Under the pieces are notes generated by a model. That model was not told where the DNA came from and ran no database searches. It was given only the letters and a program-made list of their open reading frames with translations. 26,513 bases of DNA from the IMG/VR virus record IMGVR_UViG_3300048593_000456, positions 1 to 26,513 of that record; one strand, written 5' to 3'. Of this stretch, positions 22,305 through 25,694 are shown in pieces (within the stretch, counting starts at the first letter, position 1; each line of letters begins with the position of its first letter). The translations under genes and the position numbers were made by a program. The DNA comes from a virus (taxonomy: Duplodnaviria; Heunggongvirae; Uroviricota; Caudoviricetes).

Positions 22305-22356
22305 AAGTTTAAAGTTTTAATTTTTGATCATCCCGAACATATAAAAAAAGGCTGCA

Positions 22357-23479: not shown

Positions 23480-23696
23480 AACTAAAAAGAAAAAGCTTCG
23501 GGAAAAATCTGTATATCAAAAAGTCCTAAAAAGACGACAGAAGATTCGGGAAGATAACAGGTTAAAATATGTTTTAGGAAAACTTGCAAAGGAAACTGAA
23601 AAGTTGTCTGCTCCTAAAACTATGCTAAGAAAATATAAAATGGAATTGCTTGAAGAACGTAAAACAATTCCTGAAAACGGAGAAAAAAATAGTTGA
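23463..23696 (+). CDS. basic hypothetical protein (77 aa)
   Basis: AAGGG RBS; Lys/Arg-rich. Confidence 0.6.
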   Translation: MLTKHKTKKKKLREKSVYQKVLKRRQKIREDNRLKYVLGKLAKETEKLSAPKTMLRKYKMELLEERKTIPENGEKNS

Positions 23697-23720
23697 CAAA
23701 TCAAATCTGTGAACTATAAT
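23693..23720 (+). promoter_or_regulatory. promoter of the ncRNA-Ro60 operon
   Basis: TTGACA-N16-TATAAT. Confidence 0.85.
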
Positions 23721-23800
23721 AAAACAAAACAGGGATGAATGAAAAAGATTAACTGAATGCTTATCAAAAAACTCTTTTTCAACTTTTTGCCCGTTTTTAT

Positions 23801-23918
23801 TGTGAGATAGCTTAATGGTAGAGCACGTAAAACTCTTGTATACTTTTTTACTATGTACGATAATACAAGATTAACCACTGTTAATGGCGTTGTGTAGGTT
23901 CGATTCCTGCTCTCACAG
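23801..23918 (+). ncRNA. tRNA-Asn(GTT)-shaped RNA with 47-nt hairpin insertion (candidate Y-like RNA 1)
   Basis: TGTGAGA/TCTCACA-G73, D GCTT/GAGC, T GTAGG-TTCGATT-CCTGC. Removing 23828-23874 gives CGCCA-CT-GTT-AA-TGGCG. Insert stem TCTTGTAT/ATACAAGA. Confidence 0.8.
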
Positions 23919-23921
23919 CTT

Positions 23922-24037
23922 CCGCCTATGTTGTAATGGTAGCACAATAACTCAAGCATTGTTTTTTACTATGTACGTTTGATGTTTGATTAACTTTTTG
24001 GTGTAAAGCGGTCTAGGTTCGATTCCTAGTAGGCGGG
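23922..24037 (+). ncRNA. tRNA-shaped RNA (Gln-like scaffold) with hairpin insertion (candidate Y-like RNA 2)
   Basis: CCGCCTA/TAGGCGG-G73, D TTG-TAATGGTAG-CAC, T CTAGG-TTCGATT-CCTAG. Insert stem TCAAGCATTG/TGATGTTTGA with the same 16-nt loop as RNA 1. Confidence 0.75.
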
Positions 24038-24063: not shown

Positions 24064-25638
24064 ATGACTTTTAAGTATTTGAATCAAAAAACTTCTGTTC
24101 AAAATCCTATCGCTGGCCGTAAAGAAATGGTTCAAACCAACGGCGGCGGTTACGCTTTCAAGATTGACCATCTTCAAATGCTTGACAGATTTTTGAGTCT
24201 CGGGGCCACCTCCGGTACTTATTATATGTCGAAAGAAAAAGTACAGTATACTAATACTGAAAACATTGTTTTGTGTATACAGTCTACTCCTAATGAAACA
24301 TTAGATAGAATCGTTGAAGTTTCCAGTAAGGGTCTTGCACATAAGAACGATCACGCTATTTACGCACTTGCGTTAGTTTTTGTTCATGGAAACAACTCTA
24401 TTAAAACTAGGGCCGTTGCGGAATTCAGCAAGGTTGTACGAACTGCTACTCACCTGTTTATGTTTTGTGCTTTCATTAAAGAAATGCGTGGTTTTGGCAA
24501 GCTTGTGCGTCAAGCCATCAACAATTGGTATGTATCAAAAGATACTAAGTCTTTTGCATATCAGGTTTCTAAGTATCAGCAACGTGATGGTTGGTCTCAC
24601 AAAGACGTATTTTGCCTGACTCACCCAAAGTTTGGTAAGACCACTAATATGAATAAAATTGCTAAGTGGGCTATGGGTAACTTGGATACTTCCAACCTAA
24701 AGCCCTCTGATGAAGGACTTGTTCTATGCAAGGCAGTTGATGATGCAAAACACATCAAAAACGCTAAAGAATTAGTAGATCATATCTCGAAGTATAAACT
24801 ACAGAGAGAACATATTCCTACTGAATTTTTGAATAAGCCTGAAATTCAAGAAGCTTTGCTTCCGCATATGAACGCTACGGCACTTATCAGAAGTCTTTCG
24901 GTAATGACTGCCAGCGGGCTTATCTCGCCACTGTCTAGCTCAACAAAGTATATTGTCGGCAGGCTAAATGATAAGGATTGGCTTAGAGGTCAAAGAATTC
25001 ATCCACTTTCTATTCTAGTCGCGAATAGAATTTATGGACAAGGCAGGGGCTTGAAAGGTTCGCTTACTTGGAATACAGATAGAAATATTTTGGACGCACT
25101 AGAAAATGCTTTTTATAATGCTTTTGATGCTATCCAGCCTACTAATAAGAATTATATGTATGGAATTGATGTTTCGGGTTCCATGAGTTTTAGTTTTAGC
25201 GACACGCCATTGCAATTCTGTGAAGTTGCGGCTGTTCTTGCAATGGCTCATGTACGCACAGAGCCTTGGACATTCGTTGGCGGTTTTGCGAGCAACTTTG
25301 TAGATTTAAAAATATCTAGCAAAGATACATTGAAGTCTGCTACTGAAAAATGCCTTAAGAATAATTTCGGATCGACTAATCCTTCCGCAGTTCTTTCTTA
25401 TGCCAAGCAAAATAAAATGGATGTTGATTGTTTCATAATTATCACAGATAACGAAGTTAATTCTGGTAATCACGTTTCGTCCGAACTTAAATCTAACTTT
25501 CCTAAGTCTAAGATGATTGTTTGCGGGCTTGCGGTAAATAACTTTAGCATTGCAGATCCTAAAAATCCTAACATGCTAGATATCGCTGGATTTTCCCCGG
25601 AAATTACCTCTGCGATTTCTTCGTTCACACGCTCTTGA
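24064..25638 (+). CDS. rsr: Ro60 / TROVE-vWA RNA-binding protein (Rsr homolog)
   Basis: 524 aa; N-terminal NGGGYAF...LDRFL.LG..SGTYY, KYQQRDGWSHKD, HPL, vWA MIDAS DVSGSM, ITDNE, NNFSIADP..P.MLD.AGF; GGAG RBS. Confidence 0.93.
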   Translation: MTFKYLNQKTSVQNPIAGRKEMVQTNGGGYAFKIDHLQMLDRFLSLGATSGTYYMSKEKVQYTNTENIVLCIQSTPNETLDRIVEVSSKGLAHKNDHAIYALALVFVHGNNSIKTRAVAEFSKVVRTATHLFMFCAFIKEMRGFGKLVRQAINNWYVSKDTKSFAYQVSKYQQRDGWSHKDVFCLTHPKFGKTTNMNKIAKWAMGNLDTSNLKPSDEGLVLCKAVDDAKHIKNAKELVDHISKYKLQREHIPTEFLNKPEIQEALLPHMNATALIRSLSVMTASGLISPLSSSTKYIVGRLNDKDWLRGQRIHPLSILVANRIYGQGRGLKGSLTWNTDRNILDALENAFYNAFDAIQPTNKNYMYGIDVSGSMSFSFSDTPLQFCEVAAVLAMAHVRTEPWTFVGGFASNFVDLKISSKDTLKSATEKCLKNNFGSTNPSAVLSYAKQNKMDVDCFIIITDNEVNSGNHVSSELKSNFPKSKMIVCGLAVNNFSIADPKNPNMLDIAGFSPEITSAISSFTRS

Positions 25639-25662
25639 CAAATGCTGATCTCGTGTTAAAAT
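25635..25662 (+). promoter_or_regulatory. sigma70-type promoter
   Basis: TTGACA-N16-TAAAAT, TG extended; the -35 contains the Ro60 stop codon. Confidence 0.75.
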
Positions 25663-25694
25663 AGCCAGAGAACAACTCTCTGGCTTTATTTTTT
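25663..25694 (+). terminator. Rho-independent terminator of the Ro60 operon
   Basis: AGCCAGAGA-ACAAC-TCTCTGGCT followed by a T-rich tract. Confidence 0.75.

Follow-up and report, generated by a model that had tools for sequence, protein, structure and literature searches.

The window analysed here is a stretch of 26,513 nt, which corresponds to positions 1 to 26,513 of the 111.5-kb IMG/VR record IMGVR_UViG_3300048593_000456 of a Caudoviricetes virus. Positions 23801-24037 contain two tandem tRNA-shaped genes, designated tY1 and tY2, with a consensus promoter on their 5′ side and, directly on their 3′ side, a gene encoding Ro60 with its TROVE and vWA domains (Table 1). The end of tY2 is separated from the start codon of the Ro60 gene by 26 nt, on the same strand. 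Y RNAs accompany Ro60 as obligate partners in organisms ranging from bacteria to humans, and tY1 and tY2 show the proximity to a Ro60/TROVE gene, and the shared orientation, that are looked for in a Y RNA.

The promoter, in which 12 out of 12 consensus positions are matched, is directly followed by a leader hairpin, a candidate third Y RNA. This hairpin is composed of GGGAUGAAUG, an 8-bp stem (GAAAAAGA/UCUUUUUC), GAUUAAC and a return strand (UUUUUGCCC). Its layout matches two elements of a relative locus (L010:1130-1201 and L010:1399-1465), a homology judged by eye and without the model described below, and its bulge base is a U where the family has a C. The leader loop differs among strains at positions 23755, 23759, 23760, 23766 and 23772. 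It is also worth noting that about 190-200 extra bases are present between 23920 and 23921 in the relative L001/L007 (L001:~2660-2870) and in an RNA-library contig. At the other end of the operon, a promoter-like site that matches 11 out of 12 consensus positions and has an extended -10 TG is found at 25635-25662 on the plus strand, where it overlaps the stop codon of Ro60 and borders on the terminator-like hairpin.

Table 1. Features of the region encoding tY1, tY2 and Ro60; positions are those of the window.
Feature	Position	Strand	Basis or remark
Sigma-70-type promoter	23693..23720	+	TTGACA-16 nt-TATAAT, 12/12 consensus match
Leader hairpin, open-ended and Y-RNA-like, possible third Y RNA	23732..23792	+	Fold MFE -12.1, z -1.9
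tY1, putative tRNA-shaped Y RNA	23801..23918	+	Rfam tRNA 43.5 bits; R1 97.7 bits
tY1 acceptor stem, 7 bp	23801-07/23911-17	+	Read from sequence
tY1 D arm	23810-24	+	Read from sequence
tY1 anticodon-stem pairs	C23826-G23889, G23827-C23888	+	CU/AG replaces CG/CG in L019
tY1 47-nt insert, inside the 5′ side of the anticodon stem	23828..23874	+	Read from sequence
tY1 connecting stem around the tip	23834..23870 (23834-41/23863-70)	+	8/8 pairs
tY1 16-mer, copy 1	23844..23859	+	By alignment columns, helix 4 statistics
tY1 GAUUAAC, variant of the GGUUAUC (YUAY) motif	23869..23875	+	Alignment columns 203-207
tY1 anticodon-like hairpin CCA-CUGUUAA-UGG	23875..23887	+	Position equals that of the YrlA V arm
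tY1 rest of anticodon stem	CCA 23875-77/UGG 23885-87	+	Read from sequence
tY1 T arm, preceded by a 4-nt variable region	23894-23910	+	Read from sequence
tY1 discriminator G	23918	+	Read from sequence
tY2, putative tRNA-shaped Y RNA	23922..24037	+	Rfam tRNA 31.9 bits; R1 57.0 bits
tY2 acceptor stem	23922-28/24030-36	+	Read from sequence
tY2 connecting stem around the tip	23952..23989 (23952-61/23980-89)	+	Read from sequence, aligned to the model
tY2 16-mer, copy 2, same tip	23962..23977	+	Base after the G is U (23978)
tY2 GAUUAAC	23988..23994	+	Sequence, model alignment
tY2 anticodon-like hairpin, 4 bp	23994-24008	+	Directly 3′ of the insert
tY2 T arm	24013-29	+	Read from sequence
Ro60 orthologue, 524 aa	24064..25638	+	TROVE E 7.8e-33; vWA_Ro60 E 1.7e-36
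Terminator-like hairpin followed by a T run, at the operon end	25663..25685	+	Closes the operon

Both RNAs are matched by the Rfam tRNA model (RF00005) above its gathering threshold of 29 bits, with an insertion of 50-60 nt in the anticodon region, while ARAGORN called neither tY1 nor tY2 as a tRNA. They do not read as decoding tRNAs, as the anticodon arm is interrupted by the 47-nt insert and its loop is not kept among close relatives. The insert of tY1 consists, in order, of UAAAAC, a stem strand, the 16-mer region, the second stem strand and GAUUAA(C). The plan of tY2 is the same, its insert sitting between the D arm and the anticodon-like hairpin.

The sequence TTTTTTACTATGTACG is found exactly twice in the window, at the positions given for copies 1 and 2, as had been reported in the initial annotation of this DNA. 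Allowing up to 3 mismatches adds a single match in the window, at 22334-22349 on the minus strand and with 3 mismatches, where 0.71 is expected from shuffling. Similarly, a search of the whole 111.5-kb record with the 13-letter core and at most 1 mismatch gave 2 forward and 0 reverse sites, both of them already known. The stems around the two copies also pair as previously described, TCTTGTAT with ATACAAGA over 8 bp in tY1 and TCAAGCATTG with TGATGTTTGA over 10 bp, including 3 G-U pairs, in tY2, and the termini TAA(AA)CTC (5′) and GATTAA(C) (3′) are indeed common to both inserts. Between the two stems, positions 3, 4 and 6 are changed on both strands, in a compensatory manner.

A search of IMG/VR for exact or structured matches to the 16-mer with a T loop after it yielded only two relatives, in which Ro60 is 95-96% identical, and the comparative work was consequently carried out via Ro60 homologues. 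The Ro60 protein search gave more than 1000 relatives at E ≤ 1e-10, and 80 viral and 80 metagenomic Ro60 loci were fetched using an alignment of 40 relatives. For the metagenomic loci, no Ro60 relative closer than 42% was present among the matches listed, and Ro60 relatives at 83% and 64% were left out of the locus set. An over-long Rfam tRNA match is also present 5′ of Ro60 in the loci L010, L011, L016 and L019, the inserts of which bear a clear Y-RNA signature, GGNCGA(A/U)G-N7-GGUUAUC. A regular expression for this signature matched 98 of 166 loci, a crude count used as a lead only, in which duplicate contigs are counted and matches inside ORFs are included. In plain MAFFT alignments of 17 and 15 elements, UUUUAC..UAUGUACGA of the window falls under CUU-ACCC..GGGU-C-GA (or CUU-GCCC..GGGC-C-GA(A)G) of the relatives, the window stem falls under the next helix of the family and GAUUAAC falls under GGUUAUC. 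In the raw MAFFT alignment, which was not fitted to a structure, 85 of 90 tip cells are paired.

A covariance model, R1, was built from a 15-sequence alignment with five helices, i.e., acceptor, D, connecting stem, tip and T. The seed of this model did not contain tY2, which is nevertheless recovered (Table 1); ordinary tRNAs score at most 49 bits under R1 in the window and the viral loci, and 50-51 bits elsewhere. Besides those of the window, long R1 elements (about 53 bits or more) were detected in 22 of 80 viral and 19 of 80 metagenome loci, two sets that have some contigs in common. Five phage records were scanned in full (554 kb); each of the 11 long matches (at least 69 bits) is located within 2.2 kb of Ro60 and on the same strand, and the remaining two R1 matches are tRNA-sized. 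On the 111.5-kb record of the window itself, R1 detects only tY1 and tY2. Tandem arrays of up to four copies are present in relatives, and four Y RNAs of tRNA order in a row can be seen at L030:3611-4223, downstream of Ro60, as well as at L111:1-700 and L106:195-866. Separately, canonical Y-type hairpins located just upstream of phage or metagenome Ro60 genes at L140:1057-1126 and L118:1055-1124 pass the threshold of RF01656 (39.4 and 39.2 bits, respectively, versus 38); the nematode ceN72-3/ceN74-2 RNAs of this family are stem-bulge RNAs, a group regarded as homologous to Y RNAs.

Base pairs were counted in 50 elements (E ≤ 1e-11) from 36 selected sources. In this alignment, which was fitted to R1 and is hence biased towards the structure, standard pairs fill 92.0% of the cells, compared with 65.3% after shuffling and 34-50% when the partners are slid by 1-3 columns. 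Both sides change in 28 of the 30 pairs, and the covariation score reaches 0.740 against 0.221 for the control. For the individual helices, the values are 96.5% pairing and covariation of 7/7 pairs in the acceptor stem, 79.5% and 8/8 in the connecting stem (helix 3), 92.3% and 5/6 in the tip helix, and 99-100% pairing in the T and D helices of the family. When the window family is compared with L010 and L011, its closest relatives whose tip differs, the tip shows conservation and no covariation.

Several columns of the 16-mer region are conserved across the 50 elements. The two U preceding the helix are found in 48 and 47 of the 50 elements, the U.G in 47, the bulged C in 45 and the G that follows it in all 50. 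The UUAYC columns (203-207) are nearly as constant, with T in 50, T in 48, A in 45, T or C in 46 and C in 48 elements; the fourth of these columns is an A in 4 sequences, the window family among them.

These alignments modify two earlier statements about the repeated sequence. The 16-mer had been described as a loop on a covarying stem; the covarying stem is confirmed, whereas by homology the loop itself is not a simple one and would comprise the two strands of a short helix that contains a bulge and ends in a UAU triloop. In copy 1, the predicted pairs are U23847-A23860, U23848.G23859 and UAC 23849-51 with GUA 23855-57, leaving 23852-54 as the triloop and C23858 as the bulge. In tY2, the base that follows the G is a U, so that a U.U stands in place of the final U-A pair of copy 1. 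It had also been stated that no GNCGAA-type motif is present, but the 3′ end of the 16-mer (GUACG followed by A or U) occupies the columns of GGNC-C-GA(A)G in the 50 homologues. In these columns, the window reads UACGAU (tY1) and UACGUU (tY2) where GNCGAA is the reference, so that the bulged C and the next G are kept while both RNAs lack its first G and its second A, tY2 having neither A.

The window tip can pair UU+UAC with GUA+C+GA, but the isolated 19-nt tip has an MFE of 0 in the energy model, i.e., the tip helix is thermodynamically negligible in this AT-rich phage. Likewise, folds of the whole elements and of the inserts are indistinguishable from those of shuffled sequences (z about -0.8 to -1.6; -0.8 and -1.3 for the whole elements), and the MFE structure of tY2 is an alternative fold. 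Thermodynamic folding was thus not relied on.

Comparison of tY1 with tY2 in the model alignment reveals a very uneven divergence. The acceptor stems are identical at 2 of 14 positions, and the connecting stems at 5 of 8 (5′ strand) and 4 of 8 (3′ strand), versus 17 of 22 positions in the tip region, 16 of them consecutive, and 7 of 7 in GAUUAAC. Both tips are also kept in the relatives with 95-96% identical Ro60, the two 16-mers being unchanged in L007, while L008 carries one change, at the first base of copy 1, which is unpaired. In two related contigs spanning the region, both 16-mers are invariant and the Ro60 ORF contains many substitutions. This strain comparison concerns assembled contigs, two of them from RNA libraries, from which neither transcription nor RNA ends or processing can be deduced; one RNA-library contig of 229 nt that stops at 23823 is not interpretable. 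The anticodon-like loop of tY1 (23878-23884) is a variation hotspot, with CUGUUAA in the window, AUGCUAA in L007 and one RNA-library contig, the 8-nt AUUGCUAA in L008 and CUUUUAA in one DNA contig. The tY2 loop (23998-24004) reads UUGGUGU in the window and UUGGUAAU in L008. Among the near-identical relatives, the rest of tY1 shows 3-4 changes, one of which converts a T-stem G.U into an A-U at 23909.

Judging from these sequence comparisons, the two copies of the 16-mer are most likely the sites bound by Ro60 on two tandem phage Y RNAs that have the architecture of un-permuted tRNAs. In each RNA, an open acceptor stem of 7 bp would be combined with D and T arms, an anticodon-like hairpin and an extra arm, which is inserted at the anticodon stem or within its 5′ side. 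This arm would include a 5′ junction (UAAAAC or AUAAC), the covarying 8-10 bp connecting stem, the tip and the 3′ junction GAUUAAC. In the tip, UU+UAC would pair with GUA, the bulged C and G(A) across the UAU triloop, forming a hairpin-closed counterpart of the bulged Y-RNA helix GGNC-C-GA that is recognised by Ro60. As the 16-mer aligns column for column with the Ro60 module of Y RNAs, it would represent a degenerate, hairpin-closed Ro60 site. A single transcript initiated at the consensus promoter may carry the leader Y RNA, tY1, tY2 and the ro60 mRNA. Given the 7-bp acceptor stems, RNase P and 3′ processing would then probably release both tRNA-shaped RNAs. Ro60 could dock on the tip, leaving the tRNA-like body to recruit a tRNA-binding partner or a nuclease, as in other Y RNAs. 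Reading of both RNAs by one protein would account for the identity of the tips, and a stem that needs only to pair would be free to drift by compensatory change. The proposal that the repeat is a recognition module is thus retained, with Ro60 as its likely reader.

The tRNA bodies could also be explained if tY1 and tY2 were intron-bearing genes for decoding tRNAs (Asn-GUU and Thr-GGU), from which the 47-nt module is excised with the 16-mer acting as a signal for splicing or processing. Each insert is indeed followed by a stem that carries an intact anticodon-like loop of 7 nt, a full tRNA body is present in both and tY1 has a discriminator G. However, no intron family was detected in the Rfam scans, 47 nt is far below the size of group I or group II introns, and on inspection the junctions are single strands of 6 and 4 nt around an 8-bp helix rather than a bulge-helix-bulge. 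Furthermore, four different anticodon-like loops occur among relatives with 95-96% identical Ro60. In the family, an anticodon-like hairpin was recognised in at least 9 of the 50 elements by script and in about 20 by eye, and many members (e.g., L016 and L030:3611) have no anticodon loop at all. As the module moreover bears Y-RNA motifs and tracks Ro60, we regard intron-bearing tRNA genes as improbable. A still less probable possibility is that both RNAs are tRNA-shaped decoys or regulators without a role for Ro60, which have inherited the neighbourhood and a degenerate motif that no longer binds. The departure of the motif from the consensus, the instability of the tip helix and the lack of an Rfam Y-RNA match would be in line with such a loss, but an intact, co-oriented Ro60 gene lies immediately downstream, the family-invariant UU, bulged C and G are all kept and the constraint on the tip is visible.

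Two further explanations are each held to be highly improbable. The shared 16-mer might be a functionless remnant of a recent duplication, or of gene conversion between the inserts, since the two genes are adjacent paralogues and relatives contain tandem arrays. As was argued in the initial annotation, the covariation of the stems speaks against a duplication that is recent and neutral: outside the shared sequence, the two RNAs are old and diverged, in the acceptor and both strands of the connecting stem, including three double changes, compared with 16 consecutive identical positions in the tip. In addition, the positions conserved in 50 distant elements coincide with the 16-mer, which is unchanged in strains with many substitutions in the Ro60 gene. 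Alternatively, the tip could mediate an RNA-RNA contact instead of forming a protein site, either as a guide or through kissing of the self-complementary GUAC, two copies of which would be present on one transcript. Both variants had been raised previously and neither is supported by the comparison, as no complementary site exists within the 111.5-kb phage record, the GUAC palindrome is not conserved because homologues carry GGGCC or GGGUC at this position, and by homology these bases fall in the predicted helix and bulge.

Among known RNAs, tY1 and tY2 are closest to YrlA (RF02553), which is likewise encoded beside Ro60 and on the same strand, and with which they share tRNA-like D and T arms. 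YrlA of S. Typhimurium was described as a circularly permuted tRNA in a crystal-structure paper, in which the origin of YrlA is presented as debated and a dimeric tRNA as one proposal (bioRxiv 10.1101/312249). YrlA is ordered, from the 5′ end, as the GNCGAA motif, YUAY, the V arm, the T arm, a closed acceptor-like stem-loop, the D arm and the return strand (PMC4201824). According to the published seed alignment (PMC4201824, supplementary text 1), YrlA and tY1/tY2 contain the same modules in the same cyclic order: a GNCGAA-type motif (degenerate in tY1 and tY2), a helix, G(G)UUAYC, a CCA-CUNNNAA-UGG hairpin, the T arm, the acceptor-like stem, the D arm, (U)AAAAC and the return strand. The difference resides in the place where the chain is open. 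YrlA ends at the Ro helix and its acceptor-like stem is closed, whereas in tY1 and tY2 the 7-bp acceptor is open and a loop would close the Ro helix, the two strands of which are recognisable, resulting in the order acceptor 5′, D, Ro module, T, acceptor 3′. The motifs of tY1/tY2 are also degenerate compared with those of YrlA, which has GNCGAA for UACGAU and YUAY for UUAA. RF02553 (gathering threshold 69 bits) has no match at 23801-24037 at E ≤ 10, its best match in the record reaching 17.1 bits elsewhere, and the Rfam Y_RNA and sbRNA models have no listed match at tY1/tY2 at E ≤ 10, overlapping matches of the same clan being hidden; on canonical Y hairpins of two related loci, the sbRNA family does reach its threshold.

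A YrlA-order reading across the junction of tY1 and tY2 was also considered. By inspection, the strands of each insert pair in cis at 8 of 8 positions, compared with 5 of 8 for the 3′ strand of tY1 with the 5′ strand of tY2, so that the compensatory stem changes exclude this reading; the sequence between the first T arm and the second D arm is not self-complementary. Published V arms, such as CCA-CUCAUAA-UGG and CCA-CUUCUAA-UGG (PMC4201824), have the same form as the anticodon-like hairpin of tY1, which suggests that the V arm of YrlA may be the old anticodon hairpin.

The YrlA of M. smegmatis, which has a 7-bp stem, is cleaved by RNase P and receives a CCA tail (PMC4201824). It thus resembles the window RNAs in its 7-bp acceptor, in being handled as a tRNA by processing enzymes and in having free acceptor ends once cleaved. 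The cut M. smegmatis RNA consists of two paired pieces, whereas closure of the Ro helix would make tY1 and tY2 each a single unbroken chain. Concerning the binding site, GNCGAAN0-1G was noted to resemble the GGUCCGA contacted by Xenopus Ro60, and the vertebrate motif forms a bulged helix with 3′ residues, of which Ro60 touches mainly the 5′ strand (PMC4201824). In the Thermus phage phiLo, Ro60 was shown by EMSA and cryo-EM to bind upstream-encoded CGAA RNAs and to join the host PNPase (PMC12135203). The CGAA-bearing phiLo RNAs Yrl1 and Yrl2 are, as in the window, small RNAs encoded just upstream of a phage Ro60, but they are described as stem-bulge-stem hairpins and not as tRNA-shaped (PMC12135203), and are nearer to the leader hairpin than to tY1 and tY2. 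Yrn1 of D. radiodurans resembles the window RNAs in keeping the two strands of the Ro helix and in having a T-arm-like element (PMC4201824). It differs by a stem-loop between the D and T elements at the position of the anticodon arm and by arms that are oriented otherwise relative to the ends, and it lacks a full cloverleaf (PMC4201824).

The Y RNA of tRNA order, with a hairpin-closed Ro60 helix, is best read as a new topology of the known Y-RNA class. This form is present in about a quarter of the 160 Ro60 loci at the scores used, and so widespread a phage form in plain tRNA order would offer a simple evolutionary intermediate for the permuted YrlA, as it combines an open acceptor stem with a hairpin-closed Ro60 helix that keeps its two strands, to which the window and some members of the family add an anticodon-like hairpin. 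It would also provide a one-piece, easily made substrate for finding the partner of the tRNA-like half. In addition, such genes are mishandled by tRNA finders, Rfam assigning them to tRNA and ARAGORN skipping them. A more far-reaching and rather unlikely extension is that tY1 and tY2 are dual-purpose RNAs, whose tRNA bodies continue to undergo processing and CCA tailing and might also be charged, or be recognised by anticodon-directed enzymes, with a Ro60 handle added to what would be an un-permuted ancestor of YrlA. If this were true, the phage would bring Ro60, together with a recruited nuclease or repair enzyme, to the tRNA-binding factors of the host, and the fast-changing loop would reflect an arms race, e.g., with anticodon nucleases. 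The tRNA-order form would then be the ancestor of YrlA, with the V arm as the old anticodon hairpin.

In the parts of PMC4201824, 10.1101/312249, PMC12135203 and PMC7824862 covered by a search of the full-text literature, no hairpin-closed Y RNA of tRNA order is described. Chen et al. (2014) treated candidates that overlapped tandem tRNA genes of the annotation as potential false positives and dropped them (PMC4201824), a filter that could have hidden the tRNA-order form. The published phage examples that were scored with R1 do not have this form, on account of their low scores or their YrlA order. The Caulobacter phage CcrColossus, for which three YrlAs are given in Table S2 of PMC4201824, yields 35, 30, 20, 19 and 17 bits with poor acceptor pairing, and phage ET08 yields about 25 bits. 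The Gordonia phage Cashline reaches 49.6 bits and by eye contains a tandem array in YrlA order, with an acceptor-like stem closed by UUCG. These tandem YrlA-type units of Cashline (MW534378.1, L174:1130-1400) are unannotated and lie upstream of a Ro-like gene; the array is readable in either register, since both the UUCG acceptor-like stem and the inter-unit Ro helix can close. In the Microbacterium phage Magritte (OR553905.1, L171:937-1013), a Y motif of the GGCUGAAGCAGUUCGGUUAUC type directly precedes an annotated tRNA-Arg(tct), and several unannotated CUGAAG..GUUAUC motifs are located between this tRNA and the Ro-like gene.
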